DNA of 64,000 bases from assembly GCA_030018315.1 (NCBI GenBank), contig JASEGA010000001.1, forward strand, positions 12,673-76,672. Direction: 5' to 3'. Positions within the stretch are counted from its first letter, which is position 1, and every line of letters begins with the position of its first letter. Both the position numbers and the translations under genes were made by a program. Below are positions 6,572 through 59,840 of this stretch, one piece after another. The notes beneath the pieces are model-generated. The model was not told the origin of the DNA and searched no databases. It saw only the letters and a program-made list of their open reading frames with translations. Source of the DNA: a bacterium (GTDB taxonomy: Bacteria; Hydrothermota; UBA3073; JACQXS01; JAGMCI01).

Positions 6572-7351
6572 ATGCAGCGATTTATAGGAATTGACCTTGC
6601 ATGGTCATATAGGAACACATCGGGTATTTTTGCGCTTGAATGTAAAGACAATAAAATTTTTCAACTTACCTATAATAACTCTATTAAAAAAGATGATGAA
6701 ATTTTAGATTTTATTCAAGCGAATAAGGGCAAAGGAGGCTGTCTTGTAGCTATTGATGCGCCACTTGTAGTTCCAAATGTTAAAGGTACGAGACCAGTAG
6801 ATATTGAGATTACAAAGAGGTTTCATTCTCAAGAAGCTGGCACTTTACCTGCAAATAGAAATATACTTAAGAATAATAAAGGCGAGGTGCGAGGTGAGGT
6901 ACTTGTAGAGAAATTAGAAAAAATTGGATGTGAGCATAGCTTTGAAATTAAAAAACACGATAGAGGATTTAAGGTATTTGAAGTTTTTCCGCATCCAGCA
7001 ATGGTGGTTATTTTTGATTTATCTACTATTCTTAAATATAAAGCAAAAAAAGGGAGGACACTTAATTTTCGACTTAAAGAGTTAGACCGCTATAAGACTT
7101 ATCTCTCTAATCTTCAAAAATTTGTCCCCCCATTAGCTCAACCTCCACCTTTACAGGATTGTAGGGACACGGCATGCCGTGTTCCTACAAAATGTTACGA
7201 AGATTTGTTAGATGCCCTTTTCTGTGCTTGGCTTGCATCCTATTTCTGGTATTGGGGACCGCAAGGATTTGAAGTAGTTGGTGATATGCAAAATGGATAT
7301 ATTGTGTTGCCCAAAATGGCGGGATTCCCCGCCTGTCATTGCGACCCCTGA
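6572..7351 (+). CDS. DUF429-family protein (RNase H-like fold). The 3' end is altered by inserted repeats.
   Basis: The N-terminus FIGIDLAW is DUF429-like. The ORF contains the 28-bp palindrome at 7161-7188 in frame, and its last codons run into the family-B repeat at about 7325. Confidence 0.5.
   Translation: MQRFIGIDLAWSYRNTSGIFALECKDNKIFQLTYNNSIKKDDEILDFIQANKGKGGCLVAIDAPLVVPNVKGTRPVDIEITKRFHSQEAGTLPANRNILKNNKGEVRGEVLVEKLEKIGCEHSFEIKKHDRGFKVFEVFPHPAMVVIFDLSTILKYKAKKGRTLNFRLKELDRYKTYLSNLQKFVPPLAQPPPLQDCRDTACRVPTKCYEDLLDALFCAWLASYFWYWGPQGFEVVGDMQNGYIVLPKMAGFPACHCDP
7161..7188. repeat. GTAGGGAC...GTTCCTAC 28-bp palindromic element inserted in frame within the DUF429 CDS (one arm mismatch)
   Basis: gtagggacacggcatgccgtgttcctac. 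Encodes CRDTACRVPT in the host frame. Confidence 0.8.
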
Positions 7352-10347: not shown

Positions 10348-10806
10348 ATGATGAAATTATTTATTGCGAATGTTGGAGTGAACACAAGTCATGTAAGTAA
10401 AGGTCTCCGGAGTCCGATATTCTCAGATAAGACCTTTGAGTTTATTCCTATTCCAGAGGAAGAAGAAAGGAAAAAAGTCTTATTTTCTCCTCGATACTGT
10501 GAAATTCGGTGTTTCAACAAGCCAAATCTAGCAATTAGCGAGTATTTATGTCCTGAAAGGCGTTCAGATATTGCTCATAATGATCCAGAGTTTAATGATC
10601 CAGAGTTTAATGATCCAGAGTTCAAGTCTTTTACTTATGGTGATATTTTTTCTCCACGAGCCGCTAATCTCAAGGAAATACAACCAGATGACCTTCTTTT
10701 CTTTCTTGCAAGGTTGTGGTTATATAAAGATGGATTTACTAATGAGAGCGATCTTTACTTCATCGGTTACTTCACGGTAGAAAAAAGATTTGCTCCAAAG
10801 ACATAA
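10348..10806 (+). CDS. Hypothetical protein (152 aa). The N-terminus is faintly reminiscent of Nmad3-type nucleotide-modification-associated domains. Contains an NDPEF x3 tandem repeat.
   Basis: RBS aaaggagggg upstream. N-terminus MMKLFIANVGVNTSHVSKGLRSPIF..FEFIPIPEE. The Nmad3 resemblance is from memory only. Confidence 0.4.
   Translation: MMKLFIANVGVNTSHVSKGLRSPIFSDKTFEFIPIPEEEERKKVLFSPRYCEIRCFNKPNLAISEYLCPERRSDIAHNDPEFNDPEFNDPEFKSFTYGDIFSPRAANLKEIQPDDLLFFLARLWLYKDGFTNESDLYFIGYFTVEKRFAPKT
10582..10626 (+). repeat. In-frame 15-bp tandem repeat x3 (gatccagagtttaat) encoding NDPEFNDPEFNDPEF
   Basis: Read directly. The third unit has 2 substitutions. Confidence 0.85.
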
Positions 10807-14462: not shown

Positions 14463-16313
14463 ATGGCATATTCTATACTAACAATCTTATTAATAGGGAT
14501 TCTGGAAGAAAGTTGGCAGCCTGCATTATTTGATGCTTTAAGTTACATTAAAATGACTCCTCAAGATGTCTATATTACTTCACAACCTTCAGATACATTT
14601 TGCCTTCCATTGGTTCTTGACCTCCTAAAAAGACCTATCCAGTCTCCCAAAGTTGTTGATTCCATCGCTTTAACACTTAAAGATGCTGAACTCAGCGAGC
14701 TTGTAGATATAGCAGGTATATGTATAAATTCTACTTTATCTGATAGTAGTCGAGTTCACTTGGACTCGTTAGCGGCAAAACGAGCTCTACAACTACATAA
14801 GGAGCCACTACAATTTTTGCTTTCCCAAATTACTCTTGCAAATAATTTATTAAAGAGAACGACAGCACAACTTGATTCTTCTGAATTAAACTTCTTAAAA
14901 GAGAATTTACCTAAGATTATACTTGAAGACACTACATTTAAGGACAAAAATCCGTATGAAAAAAAGATTGCAGAGGAAGAAAGTAAAGAAATAGTTAAGA
15001 AATGCCTTAATCTTTTGAAAAAAGTGAATAGAGATGAAATTATGCTATCCGCTTATGTAATTGGAAATGCTATTACACAAACCCTTCCTGGTAGGGACAC
15101 GCCGTGGCGTGTCCCTACAATTAAATATGAAGGAAAGGTTGTAACTCCTGTTGCTACAGGTGATGTTGTCTTTGCTAAGCGTATGGAATATGGATGGATT
15201 GTGATTGGTGGCCCCGGTGAGACTATATATACTGGAGACCCTGCTGTAGTTATTGACCTCGGTGGTGATGATAAATACTATGGTAAAGTAGGAAGTGGGT
15301 CCTCCGGAGTTTCAGTGTGTATTGATTTCTCTGGTAATGACTTATATCTCTCATCTATGGATTACAATTTAGGGTCAGGCTTCTTTGGAGTAGGATTCTT
15401 ATTGGACTTTGAGGGCAATGATATATACTCCTCCGGTAACTTTTCTCATGGCTCCGGATTAGTAGGGGTAGGAATTCTATGGGATACTCAAGGTAATGAC
15501 AAGTATTTTTCTGATACCCATTCTCAAGGAGCAGGCAGTTTTGGGGTAGGAGTTTTGAAAGATTTGAGCGGTAACGATTCTTATCATGGTGCACTTTATG
15601 TACAAGGATTTGGTGGCACTTTCGGGTTTGGTGCTCTCGTGGATTCAGCTGGTAATGATGTTTATTATGCAGGCGGAAAATATAAGGATTGGCTTAGATA
15701 TGAGGACCACTTTTTGTCACTATCTCAAGGTTTTGGTTATGGGATAAGACCTTATGCATCAGGTGGTATTGGAATATTAGCAGATTTTCATGGAAATGAT
15801 TCCTATGTATCAGACATTTTTGGTCAGGGTTGCTCTTATTGGTATGCTTTGGGAGGGCTTATAGATTACGAGGGTAATGATGTGTACAGCTCATACCAAT
15901 ATGCACAAGGGGCAGGTGTCCACATTGGAATTGGTGTTCTTATTGATAAATTTGGGGATGACAGTTATTTTGCAAAAGGTGTATCACAGGGGTGTGGTCA
16001 TGATTATGCGACTGGAATCCTTATAGATGGTGGTGGAAATGACTCCTATTCAGCTTACGATTTATCTCAAGGTGCAGGTAATGCAAATGCTGTCTCAATA
16101 CTTATAGATATAGATGGCAATGATAATTATCTTATAAGAGATAAAGAAACTACACATGGATTTAGTGATTTAAGGCGAGATTTTGGTGGTATTGGAGTGA
16201 TACTCGACCTCGGAGGCAAGGATAAGTATTCAGGATATGGTGATAACAATTCAATATGGGTACACTCAACTTATGGGGTCGGTATAGATAAAGAAATAGA
16301 AAGTTTAAAATGA
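14463..16313 (+). CDS. Repeat protein with about 12 units of a 23-residue GNDxY...QG.G..G.G.L.D motif (FG-GAP-like / beta-propeller or beta-helix-like) after a 230-aa N-terminal domain
   Basis: Repeat units: GGDDKYYG, SGNDLYL, EGNDIYSS, QGNDKYFS, SGNDSYHG, AGNDVYYAG, HGNDSYVSD, EGNDVYSSY, FGDDSYFAKG, GGNDSYSAY, DGNDNYLI, GGKDKYSGYG. Contains the 28-bp palindrome in frame at 15091-15118. Confidence 0.55.
   Translation: MAYSILTILLIGILEESWQPALFDALSYIKMTPQDVYITSQPSDTFCLPLVLDLLKRPIQSPKVVDSIALTLKDAELSELVDIAGICINSTLSDSSRVHLDSLAAKRALQLHKEPLQFLLSQITLANNLLKRTTAQLDSSELNFLKENLPKIILEDTTFKDKNPYEKKIAEEESKEIVKKCLNLLKKVNRDEIMLSAYVIGNAITQTLPGRDTPWRVPTIKYEGKVVTPVATGDVVFAKRMEYGWIVIGGPGETIYTGDPAVVIDLGGDDKYYGKVGSGSSGVSVCIDFSGNDLYLSSMDYNLGSGFFGVGFLLDFEGNDIYSSGNFSHGSGLVGVGILWDTQGNDKYFSDTHSQGAGSFGVGVLKDLSGNDSYHGALYVQGFGGTFGFGALVDSAGNDVYYAGGKYKDWLRYEDHFLSLSQGFGYGIRPYASGGIGILADFHGNDSYVSDIFGQGCSYWYALGGLIDYEGNDVYSSYQYAQGAGVHIGIGVLIDKFGDDSYFAKGVSQGCGHDYATGILIDGGGNDSYSAYDLSQGAGNANAVSILIDIDGNDNYLIRDKETTHGFSDLRRDFGGIGVILDLGGKDKYSGYGDNNSIWVHSTYGVGIDKEIESLK
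15091..15118. repeat. GTAGGGACACGCC-gt-GGCGTGTCCCTAC 28-bp palindromic element, in frame (encodes GRDTPWRVPT)
   Basis: Read directly: 13-bp perfect arms and a 2-nt centre. Confidence 0.85.
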
Positions 16314-20906: not shown

Positions 20907-22783
20907 GAATGCGTAATCAAAAAAACAAACCAATTAAACCCAGTCCCTCTCCGAAGGGGCCGGGTAAACCTACAAAAGTATCTTTTATTGTAGGCATAAT
21001 TTTTTGGGTTCTACTTTTTTTCTTCTTTTTCTCTATTATTTCACTTCAAAAAGGTAAAATAGGTGAATCTATGGAAATTCCCTATTCTACATTTTATACT
21101 GAGGTAGATGCAGGAAATGTAAAGAGTATAGTGATTGCAGGTAAAGATATAAGAGGAGAATTTAAAGAGGCTATTAAGTTAAAAGATAGCAGTTACAAGA
21201 AATTTAAAACTGCCATACCATTTGAGGACCCAAATTTTGTAAATGAACTTGTAAAAAAGGGAGTCATAATAGAGTCAAAATCTTCCTTTAATATATGGAG
21301 TAAGTTTTGGCCTTATCTTCCATTTGTCTTCCTAATTATAATTTGGCTTCTTATTCTTCGTCAAGCTGGTCAGGCTCCTCGTCAAGCACTCTCGTTTGGC
21401 CAGAGTAGGGCAAAACGCTTTTCTGGTGAGAAGCACAAGACTACATTTGATGATGTTGCAGGTGTAGATGAAGCAAAGGCTGAACTTAAAGAGATAGTTG
21501 AGTTTCTCAAGTCGCCACAAAAATTTGAGCGTCTTGGTGCAAAAATTCCAAAAGGTGTAATACTACTCGGCGCTCCTGGAACAGGCAAGACTTTACTTGC
21601 ACGTGCTACTGCGGGAGAGGCAGGTGTTCCATTTTTCTCAATGTCTGGGTCAGATTTTGTTGAACTCTTTGTTGGTGTCGGGGCTTCAAGAGTTAGAGAT
21701 TTATTTGAAAGAGGTAAAAAGAACAAGCCTTGCATCATATTTATTGATGAACTTGATGCAGTGGGCAGACATAGGGGAGCTGGAATTGGAGGTGGGCATG
21801 ATGAGAGGGAGCAAACTTTAAATGCATTACTTGTTGAGATGGATGGCTTTGAAGCAAATGAGGGTATCATAGTGATGGCAGCTACAAATAGACCGGATGT
21901 CCTTGACCCAGCCCTATTGAGACCCGGTAGATTTGACCGCCGTATTGTAGTTGATAGACCAGATTTACGTGGTAGAGAAGAAATCTTTAAAGTCCATACA
22001 AGAAATATTCCTCTTTCAAAAGATATAGACCTTAAGGTTATTGCACGTGCGACTCCTGGTTTTTCTGGTGCTGATATAGCAAATACAGTAAATGAAGCTG
22101 CACTTCTTGCTGCAAAGAAAGGCAGAGATAAGGTATTAATGGAAGATTTTGAGGAAGCGCGTGATAAAGTGCTTATGGGAGTGGAGCGTAGGAGTCTTAT
22201 TATACCTGAGAATGAACGTAAAAATACAGCCTGCCATGAGGCGGGTCATGTTCTTGTTTCTAAATTTATACCAGAAGCTGACCCTATCCATAAAGTTACA
22301 ATTATACCGAGAGGTATGGCGCTGGGACTTACTCAACATCTTCCTATTGATGAGCGTCGTAATTATTCAAGAGAGTATTGTCTTGCCCAGCTTGCTGTTG
22401 CATGTGGTGGAAGAGCGGCTGAACTTATTTTACTCAATACAACGACAACTGGTGCTCGTAACGATATTGAACAAGCAACAGAACTTGCAAGAAAGATGGT
22501 ATGCGAGTGGGGTATGAGTGATGCTATTGGACCATTAGCTTTTGGTGATAGGCGTGAAGAAATATTTCTAGGAAGAGAGATTGCACAACGGCGTGATTAT
22601 TCTGAAGAGACTGCTCGTCTTATAGATAAAGAGATTAATAAATTAGTGAGAGGAGCAGAGGAGAGGGCAAAGTGTATAATTAAGGACCACATTGAAGAGT
22701 TACATAAAATAATAAATAGCCTATTAGAAAAAGAGGTTTTAACTGGCTCTGAGATAGACGACATATTAAATATCAAAAATTAA
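20888..22783 (+). CDS. ftsH: ATP-dependent zinc metalloprotease FtsH
   Basis: AAA Walker [12 protein letters not shown], and HEAGH zinc site, with an N-terminal TM pair. The start could be a few codons downstream. Confidence 0.95.
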
Positions 22784-22815
22784 ATTGTAAAAATCAAAAT
22801 GACAAATCAAAAATT

Positions 22816-22932
22816 AAATACCCAAACCCCAAGAGATAAGATACAAACAACGACCAATAACCAATCACCAAATTGTTTGGGTATTGAAATTTGGAATTTG
22901 TTTGGTTATTGTGTCTTGTATCTTGGTTATTA
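22816..22932. repeat. Long imperfect inverted repeat (about 50-bp arms) between ftsH and folP
   Basis: Left arm aaatacccaaaccccaagagataagatacaaacaacgaccaataaccaatcaccaaatt. Right arm aatttggaatttgtttggttattgtgtcttgtatcttggttatt. The centre is gtttgggtatt. Confidence 0.5.
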
Positions 22933-22978
22933 TCTTTACCATTTTTGCATTTTAACATGTATTTTTGATATTTAATTT

Positions 22979-24190
22979 TTGATATTTGATTTTATTATGG
23001 TGAGACTGCTTGATATTAAGACTGCTAATGAAGCGTCTCGTGAAATCAAGGATATAGGTGCGGATTTAGAGAGTATACCAATTTTAAGCCCAAAATTTGA
23101 ACATATAGTAATTAAAATTGAAAAAGTTAACGGGCCTGCCTGTAATATTTTGAAGCAAGAAGCTCTATCAATTGGGGCAGATTGTGCTATCCCGCGTGCT
23201 GCAATACTTGGAGTCCAAACTCCTATGGAAGCAATCGTAGTTGGTAATCTTAAACAAATCAATATGCTTGCTAATAAGCTAAAAAGTCAGCCTTTTGGGT
23301 TACAAGAAATAGGAAGTGAAATAGAAGCCATTATTAATAAGCGGAATCCGTTTATTCTTAGACTTCGGTTTCATAAACTTGACCTATCCCATCCCCTTAT
23401 TTGTGGCATCTTAAATATAACACCGGATTCATTTTATGATGGCGGCAAGTGGCTTAACCCTTCCTGTGCAGTTGATAGAGCCCATAAACTATTAGAAGAA
23501 GGTGCAGACCTCATCGATATTGGAGGTGAATCAACAAGACCGGGTGCAGAGCCTCTGTCTGCTAAAGATGAGTTACATAGAGTTATTCCTGTACTTGAGC
23601 GTTTAAATCTACCAATTCCAATCTCAATTGATACTTACAAGTCTTGTGTAGCAAAAGAAGCTCTTGATGCGGGTTGTGAGCTTGTTAACGATGTCTCTGG
23701 TTTACGATACGATTCAGAGATGCCAAAAGTGATAGTAGACTACGATGCAGGCTGTGTAATTATGCATATGAAAGGTACCCCAAAGACTATGCAGATAAAT
23801 CCTATTTATGATAATAATGATGTTATAGGTGAGATAATACAGTTCTTAAGTGAAAGTATAGAGATTGCTAAGAAATCGGGTATAAATGATGACTCACTCC
23901 TTATAGACCCTGGTATTGGATTTGGTAAGCGTAACCCAGAAGATAACTTACTTATTCTACGTAAACTCAGTGAATTCAAGACTCTTAGAAAGCCAATTCT
24001 TGTAGGTGTATCAAGGAAATCATTTATTGGAAAAGTCCTTGATGTACCACTTGATGATAGATTAGAGGGGTCTCTTGCAGCATCGGTTATAGCAGTGATG
24101 AACGGTGCAAATATCATACGGACACATGATGTACTTGCCACAAAGAGAGCTGTGAAAATGGCAGATGCCATCTTAGGTTGTGAATGCTAA
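22979..24190 (+). CDS. folP: Dihydropteroate synthase with about 130-aa N-terminal extension
   Basis: ICGILNITPDSFYDGG and the downstream Pterin_bind motifs. The N-terminal 130 aa has no recognised motif. Confidence 0.85.
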   Translation: MIFDFIMVRLLDIKTANEASREIKDIGADLESIPILSPKFEHIVIKIEKVNGPACNILKQEALSIGADCAIPRAAILGVQTPMEAIVVGNLKQINMLANKLKSQPFGLQEIGSEIEAIINKRNPFILRLRFHKLDLSHPLICGILNITPDSFYDGGKWLNPSCAVDRAHKLLEEGADLIDIGGESTRPGAEPLSAKDELHRVIPVLERLNLPIPISIDTYKSCVAKEALDAGCELVNDVSGLRYDSEMPKVIVDYDAGCVIMHMKGTPKTMQINPIYDNNDVIGEIIQFLSESIEIAKKSGINDDSLLIDPGIGFGKRNPEDNLLILRKLSEFKTLRKPILVGVSRKSFIGKVLDVPLDDRLEGSLAASVIAVMNGANIIRTHDVLATKRAVKMADAILGCEC

Positions 24191-24200
24191 ATTCTAAATT

Positions 24201-24599
24201 ATGAGTGCTAAATTGGAGAAAAACATAATTAAAGAGAAAGTATATAAATTTGCTTTGCATGTTATTAATATTAAATTTGTAAATTCCTTGCCCAAAAACA
24301 TGGCAATCCCCATTCTTGGTGGACAACTTCTTCATGCAAGTACTTCTGTGGGAGCAAATGTAGAAGAGGCATTGGGTGCGGATAGCAAGAAGGACTTTTC
24401 TTATAAAATGAGCATTTAAAATGAGCATTGCTAAAAGAGAAGCGCGTGAGAGCAAGTATTGGCTTGAGTTGATAACTGACTCAAAATTAGCAAAAAGAGA
24501 TAATGACTTAATTAGGGAAGCAAGCGAGTTAGTGAGTATCTTACCGAGTATTGTTAAGACTTCGCAAAGGAACACAGAACATCGAGCTAGGGGTAACTA
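24201..24599 (+). pseudogene. Four-helix-bundle protein (23S rRNA intervening-sequence protein family) disrupted by a 13-bp tandem duplication (24405-24430)
   Basis: ..YKFALHVINI..LPKNMAIPILGGQLLHASTSVGANVEEALGADSKKDFSYKMSI*, then in the +1 frame MSIAKREARESKYWLELITDSKL... The sequence aaaatgagcattt is directly repeated. Confidence 0.6.
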
Positions 24600-24626
24600 A
24601 TTTAGCATTTAGAATTAAGAATTTTT

Positions 24627-25373
24627 TTGAAAGCTATGGGGTTCATTAAATTCAGATTCATAGATGGGCTGGATATTGTAGTAGTAACTTTAATTATTTA
24701 TTATTTTCTTTCCTTCATAAAAGGGACAAAGGCAATCCAGATGATAATAGGGCTCCTCAGTCTACTTCTTTTAGGTCTATTTGCTGACTTTTTTAAACTT
24801 GAAACCCTTTCTTTTATCACCAAAGGATTTAGTGCAGTCTGGATAATAGTCTTCGTTATCCTATTCCAGCCGGAGTTAAGGAATGCACTTGCAAGAATTG
24901 GTAGGACGAAGATTGGCAAATTCTTTACTAAAGAAAAAAATGTAATAATGGATGAACTTGTAAGTGCATTATTCACATTATCTAAAAATAAGCACGGTTG
25001 TATAATAGCTATTGAGCGAGATACTCCACTCAAAAGTTATATGGATACGGGGCGTATAATTGAGGCAAAGCTATCAAGTGAACTCATAACAACCATATTT
25101 AGTCCACATTCGTCACTCCATGATGGTGCAGTTGTTATTAAAGAAGATACAATAGTAGCAGCTGCTTGTATTCTTCCACTTTCAGAGAAGTCACTTAACA
25201 CTACAATTGGGACACGCCATCGTGCAGCCCTCGGGCTATCAGAGGAGACAGATGCTTTATGTATAATTGTTTCAGAAGAGACTGGTAAAATAAGCTTTGC
25301 AACTGGTGGTAATCTTACAATGAATATTCCAGAAAATGAGCTTAAAAGTAGACTTTTAAAGGAGCTTGGCTAA
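24627..25373 (+). CDS. cdaA: Diadenylate cyclase CdaA (c-di-AMP synthase), membrane-anchored
   Basis: 3 TM segments followed by a DAC domain: DGAVVI, TRHRAALGLSEETDALCIIVSEETGKISFA. Confidence 0.8.
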   Translation: MKAMGFIKFRFIDGLDIVVVTLIIYYFLSFIKGTKAIQMIIGLLSLLLLGLFADFFKLETLSFITKGFSAVWIIVFVILFQPELRNALARIGRTKIGKFFTKEKNVIMDELVSALFTLSKNKHGCIIAIERDTPLKSYMDTGRIIEAKLSSELITTIFSPHSSLHDGAVVIKEDTIVAAACILPLSEKSLNTTIGTRHRAALGLSEETDALCIIVSEETGKISFATGGNLTMNIPENELKSRLLKELG

Positions 25374-28955: not shown

Positions 28956-29349
28956 TGAAGAAATTATCTCTCAAATTGGGAGTGGGTTTTTAATCCTTAT
29001 TGGAGTAGAAAAGGGTGACAAGCCTCAATCTGCTAAATACTTGGCTCATAAATGTGCTAATTTACGTATCTTTGAAGATTCATATGGAAAAATGAACCTC
29101 TCTCTAAAGGAGATAAAAGGGGGTGAGGTTCTTGTAATTTCTCAATTTACTTTATGTGCTGACTGTAAAAAGGGATTAAGACCAAGTTTTGATTATGCTT
29201 CTTCTCCAGATCAAGCAATCGCCCTTTATAAAAAGTTTATAGAATTCCTTCGTTCTGAAGGCGTTACAGTTAAAGAGGGTGTGTTCGGTGAGAGAATGTC
29301 TATCTCACTTATAAACGAGGGTCCGGTTACCTTTATTTTATCAACATAA
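28909..29349 (+). CDS. dtd: D-aminoacyl-tRNA deacylase
   Basis: MRVVVQRVKRASCEI..GFLILIGVEKGD..SQFTL..GPVTF matches Dtd throughout. Confidence 0.85.
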   Translation: MRVVVQRVKRASCEINEEIISQIGSGFLILIGVEKGDKPQSAKYLAHKCANLRIFEDSYGKMNLSLKEIKGGEVLVISQFTLCADCKKGLRPSFDYASSPDQAIALYKKFIEFLRSEGVTVKEGVFGERMSISLINEGPVTFILST

Positions 29350-29351
29350 AT

Positions 29352-29388
29352 TGTAGATTGCTTTGCTGTCGCTCGCAATGACAGAGGG
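29352..29388 (+). repeat. Family-B dispersed repeat (tgtagattgctttgctgtcgctcgcaatgacag) immediately 3' of dtd
   Basis: Read directly. Near-identical to the copy at 30231. Confidence 0.75.
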
Positions 29389-30216: not shown

Positions 30217-30230
30217 ATTTAGACTGAATG

Positions 30231-30266
30231 TAGATTGCTTTGCTGTCGCTCGCAATGACAGTGGGG
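30231..30266 (+). repeat. Family-B dispersed repeat immediately 3' of yicC
   Basis: atgtagattgctttgctgtcgctcgcaatgacagtgggg. Confidence 0.75.
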
Positions 30267-31159: not shown

Positions 31160-32297
31160 TATAGCAGCTTATAAAGCATTAGAAATTGTGCGTTTATTTA
31201 AGAAAAAGGGTGAAGATATATTCTGTGTATTAACTCGGGAGGCAACAAAGTTTGTCTCCCCTCTTTCATTTTATACGCTTTCTGGCAACGAAGTTATATT
31301 TGATTTTTTTGAGTTAAAGAGGACACCAGTCCATGTTGAGCTTGCAACTCTTGATGCTATACTTGTTGCTCCTGCAACTTATAACTTAATAGGTAAAGTA
31401 GCGTCAGGAATAGCTGATGATGCGCTCTCCTGTATAATTGCTGATACTCGGTCACCTGTCATTTTTGCGCCATGCATGGATACAGGGATGTGGGAAAATT
31501 CAATACTTCAAGATAATATAAAGAAATTGAAATCACTTGGCTACCACTTTATAGAGCCAGTTATTGGTGAACTTTCTACCTTACAGATTGGGAAAGGTAG
31601 GTTTCCAACTCCTGAATTCATTGTAGAAGAGACTTATCGTATTCTTTACTCATCTAATGAACTGAATGGCAAGAAGATTCTTGTAACAGCAGGTAGGACA
31701 GAAGAAGACATTGACCCTGTGAGATGTATAACTAATAGGTCATCTGGTATAATGGGATATGCACTTGCATATGAGGCAAGGAGGCGGGGCGGCGATGTCA
31801 CCCTTATTTCAGGTCCATCAAGTAGGGACACGCCATGGCGTGTCCCTACATCTGGGGTGAAACTTGTAAATGTGAGAACTACTAATGAACTTGAGTTAGA
31901 GGTTTTATCACGAGCCTCTGCTTCTGACATACTTATAATGGCGGCTGCAGTCGCAGATTATACACCTGTTCAACAATTTGATAAAAAAGTGAAAAATGAG
32001 TATATGGATATAAAATTAAAGCGGACGCACGATATTCTCAAGCTTGTAAGGAAGAAGAATAAGGGGCTATTTATTATTGGCTTTTCTTTAGAAACCGATG
32101 AGCATATAAAATGGGCAAAAACTAAGCTTAGAGATAAAGCTCTCAATCTCATAGTTTCTAATGATGTAGCTTCAATTGGCTCAAATGAGGCTCGAGTTAG
32201 TCTTATCAATTGCAATTTAAAAATAAAAAAATTGCCACTACTTCCAAAGTCTGAAGTTGCAAAGAAGATAATTGATTATGTGGTAGCCAGTATTTGA
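31116..32297 (+). CDS. coaBC: Bifunctional phosphopantothenoylcysteine decarboxylase / phosphopantothenate-cysteine ligase. Carries an in-frame palindromic element insert.
   Basis: Flavoprotein N-terminus KIVLGVTGSIAAYKA and a DFP C-terminal domain. The insert SRDTPWRVPTS lies at 31822-31849. Confidence 0.9.
   Translation: MRQEMKKIVLGVTGSIAAYKALEIVRLFKKKGEDIFCVLTREATKFVSPLSFYTLSGNEVIFDFFELKRTPVHVELATLDAILVAPATYNLIGKVASGIADDALSCIIADTRSPVIFAPCMDTGMWENSILQDNIKKLKSLGYHFIEPVIGELSTLQIGKGRFPTPEFIVEETYRILYSSNELNGKKILVTAGRTEEDIDPVRCITNRSSGIMGYALAYEARRRGGDVTLISGPSSRDTPWRVPTSGVKLVNVRTTNELELEVLSRASASDILIMAAAVADYTPVQQFDKKVKNEYMDIKLKRTHDILKLVRKKNKGLFIIGFSLETDEHIKWAKTKLRDKALNLIVSNDVASIGSNEARVSLINCNLKIKKLPLLPKSEVAKKIIDYVVASI
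31822..31849. repeat. Perfect 28-bp palindrome GTAGGGACACGCCATGGCGTGTCCCTAC inserted in frame in coaBC
   Basis: Read directly; the centre is CCATGG. Confidence 0.9.
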
Positions 32298-40906: not shown

Positions 40907-40974
40907 AATAATATTAAATATCAAAAATCAAATACCAAAAAATTAAAAATTCACCGCTTACCCTGTTTACATCA

Positions 40975-55343: not shown

Positions 55344-56090
55344 GTGGAAAATTTAGCCAAAAAAGTTTCCAACTCTAAATTTGTAGTGACACTAACAGGA
55401 GCTGGCGTTTCAGCAGAGAGTGGCATTTCTACATTTAGAGATAAAGATGGGCTCTGGAAAACCTATCGTGTCGATGAGCTTGCTACTCCTAATGCATTTG
55501 CAAGGAATCCTAAATTAGTATGGGAATGGTATGAATGGCGCAGAAATATAATCCGCAACGCCTCTCCTAACCCAGCCCATTATGCAATTGCAAAATTAGA
55601 AAGAACTCTACAAAATTTCCTACTCATCACCCAAAATGTAGACAATCTACATAAAGTAGCGGGTTCAGAAAAAATAATAGAGTTACATGGTAATATATTT
55701 AAGAATAAATGCTCAAGGTGTGGCAAAATTTACGATGCAACTAAAGGGCCAGTCCCTTTGGGACAGTCCCTTGAAAATCTGCAGTGTGATTGTGGTGGTC
55801 TTTTACGTCCCGATGTCGTATGGTTTGGTGAATCTATTCCCCATATTGAAGCTGCATTTAATGCAAGTTCAACTTGTGATTTTATGTTAGTTGTAGGCAC
55901 CTCTGGAACAGTGGAGCCAGCTGCTTCTCTTCCCTATATTGCTAAAAGGGCTGGTGCCTTTATCCTTGAGATTAACCTGAATGAGACTCCGCTCACTCAG
56001 GTTGCTGATTATTCTATATTTGGTAAAGCAGGAGAAATACTACCAACTTTAGTGCAAAATTTATTGACAGTTCAAAAATTTAAAGTATAA
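55344..56090 (+). CDS. cobB: NAD-dependent protein deacylase (Sir2 family)
   Basis: GAGVSAESGISTFRD, a Zn Cys pair (CSRCG..CDCGG) and VVWFGE. Confidence 0.85.
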   Translation: MENLAKKVSNSKFVVTLTGAGVSAESGISTFRDKDGLWKTYRVDELATPNAFARNPKLVWEWYEWRRNIIRNASPNPAHYAIAKLERTLQNFLLITQNVDNLHKVAGSEKIIELHGNIFKNKCSRCGKIYDATKGPVPLGQSLENLQCDCGGLLRPDVVWFGESIPHIEAAFNASSTCDFMLVVGTSGTVEPAASLPYIAKRAGAFILEINLNETPLTQVADYSIFGKAGEILPTLVQNLLTVQKFKV

Positions 56091-56100
56091 TTTAAAGAGT

Positions 56101-56183
56101 AAAATTATGAATTATAAATGCTGAATGCTAAATTAAGAAATTCATAATTGAGCATTAAGAATTTAGCATTTCTAAAGTGAAGA
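56101..56183 (+). repeat. 83-bp interleaved-inverted-repeat element (copy 1) forming the leader and GTG-AAG start of tpiA
   Basis: aaaattatgaattataaatgctgaatgctaaattaagaaattcataattgagcattaagaatttagcatttctaaaGTGaag. Interleaved inverted repeats: aattatgaatt/aattcataatt and aatgctaaatt/aatttagcatt. Confidence 0.8.
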
Positions 56184-56965
56184 GGCGTTATCTAATTGCA
56201 GGAAATTGGAAGATGAACAAAACAATTGGAGAAGCAGTAGAGTTAGCAACTAAAATAAAAACTGGACTCACCGAGATAGACGATATAGATATAGCCATAT
56301 TCCCACCATTTACTGCTCTATATCCTGTTTATGAAGTAATAAAGGAGTCAAATATTAATTTAGGGGCTCAAAATTTATGGTACGAATCTAATGGTGCCTA
56401 TACAGGTGAGATTTCACCTATCTTCATTGTAGATGTAGGCTGTAAGTATGTGATTATAGGACATTCAGAGCGTAGACAATACTGTGGTGAAACAGCTGAA
56501 CTTGTAAACCGTAAGCTTAAGACAGCACTCAAATATGGACTTATCTCCATTGTTTGTATAGGTGAAACAATAGAAGAAAGAGAGAATGGAAAAACATACG
56601 AATTAGTTGAGCGTGAATTCAATGTTGCATTTGATGGCCTTCTACCGGGGACAGTCCCCATACGGGGACAGTCCCCTTTTCTACCTATAACTATAGCTTA
56701 TGAGCCAATCTGGGCAATTGGAACTGGGTTTACAGCAACTCCTAAAATTGCAGAAGAAGTGCATAAGTTTATAAGGAAATTGGTGGAAACTAAATATGGT
56801 TACAAAGTAGCAGAAGAGTTTCGCATCCTTTATGGTGGTAGTGTGAACTCTGAAACCATATCTGGACTCCTCCGTGAGCCTGACATAGATGGCGTCCTTG
56901 TAGGAGGGGCGAGTTTGGATGCAAAATCATTCATAGAAATAGTTAAGAAAGCAAACAGTATATGA
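56177..56965 (+). CDS. tpiA: Triosephosphate isomerase with a 13-residue in-frame insertion near the active-site Glu
   Basis: AGNWKMN and AYEPIWAIGTG. GTG start. The insertion at 56647-56685 encodes GTVPIRGQSPFLP. Confidence 0.9.
   Translation: MKRRYLIAGNWKMNKTIGEAVELATKIKTGLTEIDDIDIAIFPPFTALYPVYEVIKESNINLGAQNLWYESNGAYTGEISPIFIVDVGCKYVIIGHSERRQYCGETAELVNRKLKTALKYGLISIVCIGETIEERENGKTYELVEREFNVAFDGLLPGTVPIRGQSPFLPITIAYEPIWAIGTGFTATPKIAEEVHKFIRKLVETKYGYKVAEEFRILYGGSVNSETISGLLREPDIDGVLVGGASLDAKSFIEIVKKANSI
56642..56685 (+). repeat. 39-bp insertion: 2 x GGGGACAGTCCCC palindromic units plus 5-bp direct repeat CTACC (target-site-duplication-like), inside tpiA
   Basis: CTACCggggacagtccccatacggggacagtccccttttCTACC. 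Removing 39 bp restores ..DGLLPITIAYEPIW. Confidence 0.75.
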
Positions 56966-57047
56966 AAATTATGAATTATAAATGCTGAATGCTAAATTAA
57001 GAAATTCATAATTGAGCATTAAGAATTTAGCATTTCTAATGTGAAGA
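56965..57047 (+). repeat. 83-bp element copy 2 (1 mismatch from copy 1) forming the leader and GTG-AAG start of pdxA
   Basis: Same sequence as 56101-56183 except A-to-T 3 nt before the GTG. It begins at the tpiA stop codon. Confidence 0.8.
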
Positions 57048-58015
57048 TTGGTATAACAATAGGCGACCCATCTGGGATTGGACCTGAGGTAACACTAAAA
57101 GCTTTACAATCTCTTAAAACCATAAATGAGGTGCGACCTCAAGAGGTGCAACCTCAAGCTGTTGTAATAGGAGCCCAGTCTATAATTGATGAGACAATAG
57201 AAAGATTTGGCATTCAATGGGATGGCGAAGTAATAAATTGTAGCGAGCTCAAAAGAGTGGATGTAGGCTATGGGAAGCTATCAGCGTTAGCTGGTAGGGC
57301 AGCTTATAGTTTTATTTTAAAAGGATACGAGCTTATAAACGATAAAAAAATTGACGCCTTAGTGACAGCTCCAATTTGTAAAGCTTCGCTAAATCTTGCC
57401 GGTTTTAACTTTCCAGGTCATACTGAGTTGCTTGCAAATCTATCAAATACAAAACGGTTTGCAATGATGCTTTGTGGTGATGAAATTAGAGTAACACTTG
57501 TGACAACACATATTCAACTTAAAAGAGTTCCTGAGGTACTAACAAAAGAGCAAATTGTTGAAAAAATAGAACTAACATATGAGTTTTTGAGTACCCGTTT
57601 TAACATCCATTCACCCAAAATTGGCATTTGTGCTTTAAATCCACATGGGGGTGAGGGTATTTTTGGTAACGAAGAAGCTCTAATAATAAAACCAGCAATA
57701 GATGATGCAAAGAAAAAAGGAATTCTTGTTGATGGTCCCTATGCAGCAGATACTTTATTTACACGTACTGATTTTGATGCAATAATAGCTATGTATCATG
57801 ACCAAGGTTTAATTCCTATTAAACTCAAGGAATTTGGTCATGCAGTAAATGTGACTATAGGACTACCTTTTGTTCGTACATCTCCAGACCATGGTACAGC
57901 TTTTGATATAGCAGGAAAAGGGATAGCAAATCCTGAGAGTATGATTCGGGCAATAAAGCTGGCAGTCCGGCTGGCTCAACTGAAGCCAGAAAGATTAGCT
58001 GAGGGTAGGACATAA
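57041..58015 (+). CDS. pdxA: 4-hydroxythreonine-4-phosphate dehydrogenase
   Basis: KIGITIGDPSGIGPEV and the PdxA metal-site motifs. GTG start. Contains an in-frame 15-bp tandem duplication at 57128-57157. Confidence 0.85.
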   Translation: MKIGITIGDPSGIGPEVTLKALQSLKTINEVRPQEVQPQAVVIGAQSIIDETIERFGIQWDGEVINCSELKRVDVGYGKLSALAGRAAYSFILKGYELINDKKIDALVTAPICKASLNLAGFNFPGHTELLANLSNTKRFAMMLCGDEIRVTLVTTHIQLKRVPEVLTKEQIVEKIELTYEFLSTRFNIHSPKIGICALNPHGGEGIFGNEEALIIKPAIDDAKKKGILVDGPYAADTLFTRTDFDAIIAMYHDQGLIPIKLKEFGHAVNVTIGLPFVRTSPDHGTAFDIAGKGIANPESMIRAIKLAVRLAQLKPERLAEGRT

Positions 58016-59776: not shown

Positions 59777-59787
59777 CAGTAGTATGT

Positions 59788-59840
59788 GTATAGATTGCTT
59801 CGCTATCGCTCGCAATGACAGTGGGTAGGTTCACAATGAC
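59788..59840 (+). repeat. Family-B dispersed repeat immediately 3' of the transketolase C subunit, with an extra caatgacag half-copy
   Basis: gtatagattgcttcgctatcgctcgcaatgacagtgggtaggttcacaatgacagc. Confidence 0.75.

Follow-up and report, generated by a model that had tools for sequence, protein, structure and literature searches.

A Hairpin of Seven-Nucleotide Words Ahead of tpiA and pdxA in a Hydrothermota Bacterium Shares Its Vocabulary with the Borders of a Four-Helix-Bundle Gene

The element at tpiA and pdxA

The subject of this analysis is an 83-nt element that stands twice within a 64,000-nucleotide stretch of DNA from a Hydrothermota bacterium (contig JASEGA010000001.1; hereafter the window), once ahead of tpiA and once ahead of pdxA. 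Copy 1 (56101-56183, +) lies downstream of a Sir2-family gene (55344-56090, +) and consists of a hairpin (56101-56176) followed by a GTG-AAG-A, best read as duplicated, which now opens tpiA (56177-56965, +; Pfam TIM, E 2e-89). Copy 2 (56965-57047, +) forms the intercistronic spacer between tpiA and pdxA (57041-58015, +; Pfam PdxA, E 2e-100), and closes with 7 nt, GTGAAGA, that form the native start region of pdxA. Thus flanked by the two copies, tpiA ends in a TGA stop that overlaps the first A of copy 2, and pdxA is followed by two split-transketolase genes in the same order as in relatives. An earlier reading of the window, made from its letters alone and called the sequence-only reading below, had described two 83-bp copies that differ by one base, run through GTG-AAG, and bracket tpiA, and each of these points was borne out. 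An exact 75-nt core occurs twice in the window (56101-56175 and 56965-57039) and not at all in shuffled sequence, and a repeat finder extends it to 83 nt with 99% identity between the copies. The sole mismatch is an A at 56176 against a T at 57040, one base 5′ of the GTG, and GTG-AAG-A is included at the 3′ end of both copies.

Read in 7-nt steps, the element runs AATTATG AATTATA AATGCTG AATGCTA AATTAAG and continues (A)AATTCAT AATTGAG CATTAAG AATTTAG CATTTCT. The first half supplies five sense words as written and the second half can be read as the antisense words CATAATT, GAGCATT, AAGAATT, and TAGCATT, so that the whole amounts to about five sense words (AATTATG, AATGCTR) followed by about five antisense words (YAGCATT, CATAATT), all of them degenerate. 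Tandem Repeats Finder reports period 7 at 56076-56119, 56115-56133, and 56979-56997, as well as at 24599-24624, with degenerate units that match at 64-83%. The heptamer array ends 5-6 nt 5′ of the GTG of both tpiA and pdxA.

Two perfect 11-nt inverted repeats are present in copy 1, namely AATTATGAATT/AATTCATAATT (56103-56113 and 56139-56149) and AATGCTAAATT/AATTTAGCATT (56124-56134 and 56160-56170). Both had been recognized as interleaved pairs in the sequence-only reading, whose 11-mer coordinates are off by one. They are contained in a larger imperfect palindrome with 35-nt arms (56105-56139 and 56141-56175), which are 77% complementary and one base apart, and the repeat finder returns several alternative pairing registers besides these arms. 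The interleaved, pseudoknot-like appearance is explained by the small 7-nt vocabulary, which permits several registers at once. The predicted RNA hairpins have folding energies of -14.1 kcal/mol (z -1.9) for copy 1 and -14.7 kcal/mol (z -2.4) for copy 2.

The upstream sequence of copy 1 contains a match to the sigma-70 consensus promoter, TTGACA-16-TATAAT, at 56064-56091 (+). This site matches at 12 of 12 positions and falls within the 3′ end of the Sir2-family gene; 9 nt separate its -10 hexamer from copy 1. Three perfect sites of this kind occur in the 64 kb as compared to 0.16 expected, and the remaining two (19457, +, and 45380, -) are intergenic and just 5′ of genes. Since a perfect consensus lies 9 nt upstream, copy 1 is probably the whole 5′ untranslated region of a predicted tpiA-pdxA-tkt transcript and copy 2 its intercistronic spacer. 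The proposal of the sequence-only reading that the elements form the leaders of tpiA and pdxA is supported. A Shine-Dalgarno-like motif was found 5′ of only 16 of the 51 window genes; an AU-rich leader free of such a motif is therefore normal for this genome.

Comparison of the element with the covariance models of Rfam 15 returned a single chance-level match to a microRNA (E 0.89, 21 bits, against a gathering score of 69), and identity with a riboswitch or known leader was dropped for lack of an Rfam match. The placement of a single open reading frame (ORF) between direct copies of one hairpin prompted the idea of an integron. By eye the element is without any GTT, as the attC core sites (RYYYAAC...GTTRRRY) would call for, and no search aimed at an integron integrase was made.

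Short G+C-rich palindromes stand in frame as tandem copies within three adjacent housekeeping genes. The Sir2-family gene carries GGGACAGTCCCTTT in 1.9 copies (55746-55772); tpiA carries GGGGACAGTCCCC twice (56655-56685), which adds ∼10 residues, GTVPIRGQSP, that are absent from orthologues; and pdxA carries the short palindrome GAGGTGCAACCTCAA in 2.1 copies (57128-57158, encoding EVRPQEVQPQ).

Word tracts around four-helix-bundle genes

The words of the element recur ∼32 kb away around a gene for a four-helix-bundle (4HB) protein of family PF05635 (24201-24600, +; Pfam E 6e-17, PDB 2RLD E 8e-18), which lies between folP and cdaA. The left word tract (24178-24216, +; AATGCTA AATTCTA AATTATG AGTGCTA AATTGG) contains both the folP stop and the 4HB ATG. 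The right tract (24596-24630, +; TAGCATT TAGAATT AAGAATT) complements the left one and runs to just before the start of cdaA, which is most likely the ATG at 24636, in agreement with the gene call in Logan. The flanks form 26-nt arms (24189-24214 and 24599-24624) that are 85% complementary, and the flank stem is contained in both the minimum free energy and the centroid structures predicted, the former closing over the 4HB AUG. Of six exact occurrences of AATGCTAAATT in the 64 kb, four lie in the two elements and two form an inverted pair around the 4HB gene (24183, +, and 24599, -), as compared to ∼0.1 expected by chance according to our own base-composition estimate. In addition, the 4HB flanks and the element have 23 8-mers in common, against a maximum of 7 and a mean of 0.38 in 1682 other windows of the same size. 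The claim of the sequence-only reading that the same sequence blocks border this gene therefore holds. The 76-nt core is a gene-less hairpin of degenerate 7-nt words drawn from the word family of the 4HB flanks; unlike the 4HB cassette, the 83-nt elements contain no ORF.

The sequence-only reading was also right in placing the 4HB ATG within the left tract, though a 13-bp tandem duplication (24404-24429) divides what it took for one gene into two ORFs, one of 72 aa (24201-24419) and one of 59 aa (24421-24600). Deletion of one repeat in silico gives a 128-aa PF05635 protein, and the same split is present in an independent Logan gene call. The duplication is a perfect TAAAATGAGCATT in two copies; ORF 1 ends with YKMSI and a stop, and ORF 2 opens with MSIAKREA one base later, so that every residue is kept in two coupled half-genes. 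The split 4HB could be either a pseudogene or a functional split.

A second candidate of this general kind is found in the ftsH-folP spacer (22765-22995), where a ∼230-nt imperfect palindrome is built of other words, AAAAATC and ACCAATA as against GATTTTT and TATTGGT. Its predicted RNA fold has an energy of -57.6 kcal/mol (z -5.0) and a single-arm relative is present at 40911-40950. This spacer has the look of another word hairpin that lacks a gene and uses its own set of words.

The two closest 4HB homologues (L119 and L120) are 69% and 67% identical by BLASTP, or 71% and 68% by local alignment, and both are carried on short metagenome contigs, where they are placed between ispD and ispF and bordered by element words. 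In L119 both spacers around the 4HB gene are complete sense-plus-antisense hairpins, and in both loci the last word of the array contains the ATG with which the next gene starts. The element and the ispD-4HB spacer of L119 have exact blocks of 19, 17, 13, and 12 nt in common, as compared to a background longest common substring of mean 6.6 and maximum 12, and the element is therefore a true relative of 4HB-cassette spacers. These loci, together with the one in the window, uphold the sequence-only reading in its view that the elements are relatives of the 4HB cassette borders. An empty-site comparison at ispD-ispF found neither gene within the 64-kb window. The word tracts also encode the C-terminal residues and stops of upstream genes, as in GCEC for folP and MLNAKL or INAKC for ispD, each followed directly by the stop codon.

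We then compiled a census of 23 4HB loci from several phyla, for which further chromosome and plasmid loci were picked for taxonomic spread and not for their flanks. All of these further loci carry tandem short repeats 5′ of the gene and the reverse complement 3′ of it. Across the census, a lag of 7 was the best period on both flanks in 21 loci and a period of 8 in one more; flank complementarity exceeded that of shuffles in 19/23; and in 17/23 the upstream consensus unit was the reverse complement of the downstream unit with at most one mismatch, for which we estimate a chance rate of ∼1% per locus. By our own count of consensus units, about a dozen different words are involved. Among 107 control ORFs just two, folP and tpiA, showed period 7 on both sides, and both adjoin the tracts described here.

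The vocabulary varies widely. In Nostoc punctiforme the upstream and downstream units are GTCGGAG and CTCCGAC on pNPUN01 (L133) and CAATTCG and CGAATTG on pNPUN02 (L144), and three loci of Nostoc flagelliforme pair TAATTCG with CGAATTA (L142), GATTGGA with CAATCTC (L141), and AATTCAA with TTTGAAT (L143). Planktothrix (L135) has AATCCCC and AATCGTA upstream and CGATTTA downstream, Euhalothece (L136) has CCAGTGA and 13 units of TCACTGG, and Chlorohelix (L139) has ATGAAGG and TTCATAA, while Treponema, Monoglobus, two Bacteroidota, two IMG/VR contigs, and two metagenome contigs use other words on both sides. The arrays are 3-13 units long. Paralogues in one genome differ in their words and each flank pair is still complementary, while the orthologous cassettes of L133 and L145 keep their words and differ in unit number (4 versus 8 upstream, 5 versus 3 downstream). 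The word changes from one cassette to another, and the conserved trait is the pairing between the flanks, which points to a stem under selection.

The 4HB genes are always co-directional with their neighbors and sit tightly between operon genes such as hsdS/hsdR, RND adaptor/permease, helicase/methylase, and fabH/hydrolase. This placement agrees with the report of 4HB genes inside cas operons (PMC3936711). The two phage-borne 4HB genes found both lack heptamer arrays, and the pattern is therefore not universal for the family. In L135 (Planktothrix agardhii plasmid AP017994) a second sense array of AATCCCC and AATCGTA follows the antisense array at 950-1100 and precedes the next gene, so arrays can be chained in the order sense, gene, antisense, sense.

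Two other explanations of the arrays bear on these data. The heptamers could be recognition sites on RNA or DNA, one word per subunit of a pentameric 4HB protein, in which case tpiA and pdxA would be controlled in trans. The regular association of 4HB genes with heptamer arrays suits this explanation, as do the frequency of 4-5 units per array and the five sense and five antisense words, approximately, of the element. The closest solved relative, PDB 2RLD, has five chains, a Xanthomonas homologue is a homopentamer (PMC4990558), and the element uses the words of its own genome's 4HB gene and not those of the hairpin at 22.8 kb. On the other hand, strict covariation of protein and word had to be rejected, since the words of two Nostoc 4HB proteins with 75% identity are unrelated (GTCGGAG versus CAATTCG), while the window and L119 proteins, at 71%, have words in common. 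Array length is also variable, the local 4HB gene is split, recognition is putative, and the invariant feature, flank complementarity, is explained more simply by a stem. We consider binding of this kind quite unlikely. Alternatively, the arrays could be functionless AT-rich simple sequence produced by neutral slippage, with the likeness to 4HB flanks arising from a shared mutational bias. The change in unit number between orthologous cassettes would be expected from slippage, and heptamer simple-sequence repeats are over-represented in some bacteria (PMC4692102). Slippage does not account for paralogues whose words differ while their flanks remain complementary, for the persistence of exact 17-19-nt blocks in organisms with 4HB proteins of only 71% identity, or for the restriction of two-sided period 7 to tract-adjoining folP and tpiA among the controls, and we regard it as highly improbable.

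Further copies and the origin of the pair

According to the sequence-only reading, the elements are MITE-like (miniature inverted-repeat transposable elements), that is, non-autonomous deletion derivatives of a mobile 4HB cassette which inserted independently at tpiA and pdxA and brought a start codon to each. The searches for further copies do not sustain this. No third copy was found in the 64-kb window. A scan for AATGCTAAATT-N15-45-AATTTAGCATT in one genome per species, covering 185,579 species, returned 88 hairpins, none of which is the element. They are of mixed kind and include terminator-like hairpins in Peptostreptococcus and Filifactor, the center of a repeat in an Aureispira metagenome-assembled genome (MAG), and word hairpins in Bacteroidota, Patescibacteria, and Elusimicrobia. 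When a profile of 27 close 4HB homologues was run against these loci, it detected no 4HB gene in any of them, and the 11-mer alone is therefore no marker of the family. A tblastn search with the 4HB protein against the first loci examined gave no match. A scan of JGI metagenome contigs for the central 26 nt with a free spacer likewise recovered only other heptamer hairpins and no copy of the element. A Logan contig from the same organism begins with the last 30 hairpin bases of copy 2 plus its distinguishing T, i.e., at the repeat, and such an edge shows at least two copies and nothing further. Separately, the idea that Bacteroidales hairpins sharing the words of the element lie within 23S rRNA was rejected, as no Rfam match was obtained at those loci.

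Several observations do favor mobility. The copies are near-identical and palindromic, their words are common to 4HB cassettes at the unrelated junctions ispD/ispF, folP/cdaA, hsdS/hsdR, RND adaptor/permease, and helicase/methylase, and the presence of cassettes at such different operon junctions in different organisms indicates that they move over evolutionary time. Furthermore, a longer repeat centered on the AATGCTAAATT hairpin is dispersed through the Aureispira MAG in at least 18 copies. The arms of the element are complementary as the terminal inverted repeats of a MITE would be, yet the whole element is one hairpin without a body plus distinct ends. There is no target-site duplication at either copy, the flanks being AAGAGT/GGCGTT (GAGT...GGCG) for copy 1 and TATATG/TTGGTA (TATG...TTGG) for copy 2. 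No transposase stands beside any 4HB cassette examined, the full-length related unit encodes only the PF05635 4HB protein, and 4HB proteins are not known recombinases. In addition, native pdxA sequence makes up the right end of the repeat and tpiA gained exactly one codon, as described below. Together with the lack of a third copy in the sequence scanned, these features leave MITE-like spread as an unlikely origin.

The Aureispira repeat (MAG CALDEP01; L002, L006, L009, L035, and others) is ∼230 nt long, has the inverted ends GCGTAACATGAG and CTCATGTTACGC, and holds a AATGCTAAATT...AATTTAGCATT word hairpin at its center. In appearance it is a true MITE built around a word hairpin.

Comparison of the tpiA and pdxA 5′ regions with those of relatives, a check that the sequence-only reading had put forward, proved informative. 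The source organism is related to candidate division WOR-3, which supplies the best matches for PdxA and TpiA, at 70% and 66%, and four WOR-3-type genomes have the order surA-pdxA-tktN-tktC without the element. The surA-pdxA spacer is 7 nt in two of these relatives (L121, L122) and 59 nt in two others (L124, L125), while in L123 other genes intervene between surA and pdxA. The element is absent from the related genomes and is therefore not an ordinary conserved promoter or leader.

In WOR-3 relatives without the element, pdxA starts as ATGAAGATT, and the pdxA of the nearest relative opens ATGAAGATTGG / ATGAAGATTGGG (ATGAAGA) as against GTGAAGA in the window. Because this element-free relative opens pdxA with ATGAAGATTGGG, the TGAAGATT / TGAAGA of the window is native pdxA sequence. 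The nearest relative has tpiA with its own upstream region, followed by secG and rplU; surA, secG, and rplU were not found within the 64-kb window. Its tpiA opens ATG AGA CGC AAA TTT ATT GCT GGA, as compared to GTG AAG AGG CGT TAT CTA ATT GCA GGA in the window, and the window TpiA (MKRRYLIAGNW) has one Lys more than its orthologues (MRRYLIAGNW, MRRKFIAGNW), five close ones of which open MRR(Y/K). The difference indicates that GTG-AAG replaced the tpiA ATG, and the single extra Lys that the pdxA leader and first two codons were copied onto codon 2 of tpiA. The view that the element supplies the start codons of both genes thus stands for tpiA, which gained GTG-AAG and with it the extra Lys, and fails for pdxA, whose start is native.

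From these sequence comparisons, a single local duplication linked to the relocation of tpiA is the best reading of the two copies, in preference to two MITE insertions. The hairpin would first have stood between the consensus promoter at the end of the Sir2-family gene and pdxA, as the 5′ leader of the pdxA-transketolase operon. A single duplicative rearrangement would then have put tpiA, read from codon 2 through to its stop, behind a copied leader and GTG AAG, giving the order promoter, hairpin, tpiA, hairpin, pdxA. The tpiA start codon would accordingly be borrowed, while that of pdxA would be its own, changed from ATG to GTG. Several considerations count against this account. Gene conversion after independent insertion would also yield two identical copies; the MKRRY N-terminus could be native, as one Stahlbacteria orthologue opens MKKY; the repeat topology alone also fits a sir2-E-pdxA arrangement plus a tpiA+E circle, in which E is the element; and further copies may exist beyond the 64-kb window.

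Proposed role of the hairpin and related systems

We favor, with moderate confidence, the interpretation that the element is a gene-less heptamer hairpin of the intervening sequence (IVS) type that serves as the leader of pdxA, was duplicated upon the arrival of tpiA, and acts as a stem for RNA processing, stability, and insulation of cistrons. Once transcribed, the sense and antisense arrays of words would pair into an AU-rich stem that ends 1-5 nt 5′ of the start codon. By analogy with 4HB-bearing IVSs of 23S rRNA, which are cut by ribonuclease III (RNase III), this stem may be a double-stranded RNA processing and stability element. Its processing would separate the cistrons and leave a short, unstructured, AU-rich leader free of a Shine-Dalgarno motif, and the numerous stop codons within the words would terminate read-through from the upstream gene. 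There are also points that weaken this interpretation. The hairpin exceeds shuffled sequence in stability by a modest margin only (z of about -2), and its 101-nt context has a z of only -1.15. Two near-identical copies leave no room for a covariation test of the element itself, the promoter is a consensus match only, and the local 4HB gene, being split, may be inactive. RNase III cleavage, the transcription start, and any effect on expression are predictions.

The nearest known system is the 4HB-bearing IVS of 23S rRNA, for which mobility has been proposed (PMC4990558). RNase III cuts at its complementary ends, as it does in the 28-bp terminal stem of the Coxiella IVS (PMC4990558). As in the IVSs of Coxiella burnetii and Leptospira, the 4HB cassette in the window has a small PF05635 (S23p) ORF inside complementary ends that form a stem; ORF-less forms exist in both cases, and so does ORF decay, which is seen as reduction in Coxiella and as the split in the window. 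The cassette and its ORF-less relatives differ from the IVSs in that they belong to mRNA, where they occupy intercistronic spacers and a 5′ leader, and not to helix 25 or 45 of 23S rRNA, and in that their stems are built of tandem 7-nt words, for which cleavage is proposed by analogy only.

Heptamer arrays are known from other bacteria as well, and the cyanobacterial short tandemly repeated repetitive (STRR) sequences are arrays of this kind. TAACTGA repeats occur in Beggiatoaceae, cyanobacteria, and Bacteroidetes and often end 1 nt before start codons (PMC4679880), and GGGAATC arrays in Xanthomonas include ∼70 convergent pairs (PMC4692102). The tracts described here resemble the STRR, TAACTGA, and GGGAATC arrays in their tandem intergenic 7-nt units, which often end at a start codon and vary in copy number, in the occasional convergent pairs, and in an overlap with lineages rich in 4HB genes. 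They differ in that the window words are degenerate and drawn from a small vocabulary in place of a single unit, and in that a sense array is directly followed by an antisense array. 4HB genes are mentioned in neither heptamer-repeat paper (PMC4679880, PMC4692102). A full-text literature search found no paper that links 4HB genes and heptamer arrays; most subscription journals lie outside this search and a prior description is possible.

Like MITEs and repetitive extragenic palindromic (REP) sequences, the element is short, palindromic, non-coding, and intergenic, and such repeats can break assemblies. In contrast to them, it has no target-site duplication or cognate transposase, its copy boundary takes in host coding sequence, and no multi-copy dispersal was seen in our scans. 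RNase III processing hairpins between cistrons or in leaders are known from phage T7 early mRNA and from E. coli rnc and pnp. They are our working model for the action of the element, since in both cases a stem separates cistrons or precedes the first cistron of a polycistronic transcript, although they have no sequence relationship to the element and the comparison is one of analogy alone.

A broader and more tentative proposal, which we think possible though doubtful, is that 4HB genes with complementary heptamer arrays are widespread IVS-like selfish cassettes that settle where RNA can be cut harmlessly, such as the tips of rRNA helices, cistron spacers, and leaders. On this view, gene-less stems or footprints of these cassettes would account for many of the heptamer arrays known from cyanobacteria, Xanthomonas, Bacteroidota, and Beggiatoaceae, and the stems could capture and relocate host genes, as the hairpin-flanked tpiA may illustrate. 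If the pattern of complementary heptamer arrays around 4HB genes is upheld in a full census, it would join two puzzles of about thirty years' standing, the purpose of 7-nt arrays and the function and spread of the 4HB "23S IVS" proteins, in a form testable in the tractable Nostoc punctiforme and Xanthomonas. At a smaller scale, the window would be a case of a housekeeping gene taking the hairpin leader and start codon of another gene. For annotation, it is relevant that word tracts supply the stop codons, C-terminal tails, and start codons of their neighbors.

Three further repeats were noticed in the window. A dispersed 29-nt G+C-rich palindrome, GTAGGGACACGCCGTGGCGTGTCCCTACA, is present in three copies with 86-100% identity (7161-7189, 15091-15119, and 31822-31850), with a further occurrence at 25209-25231. 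A 46-nt repeat family, GTAGATTGCTTTGCTGTCGCTCGCAATGACAGNGGG, occurs at 29343-29388, 30220-30265, and 59780-59825, in each case at or overlapping a stop codon, and resembles REP elements or terminators. Lastly, a perfect 15-nt unit, TAATGATCCAGAGTT, is repeated three times in tandem at 10578-10622 within the ORF at 10348-10806.

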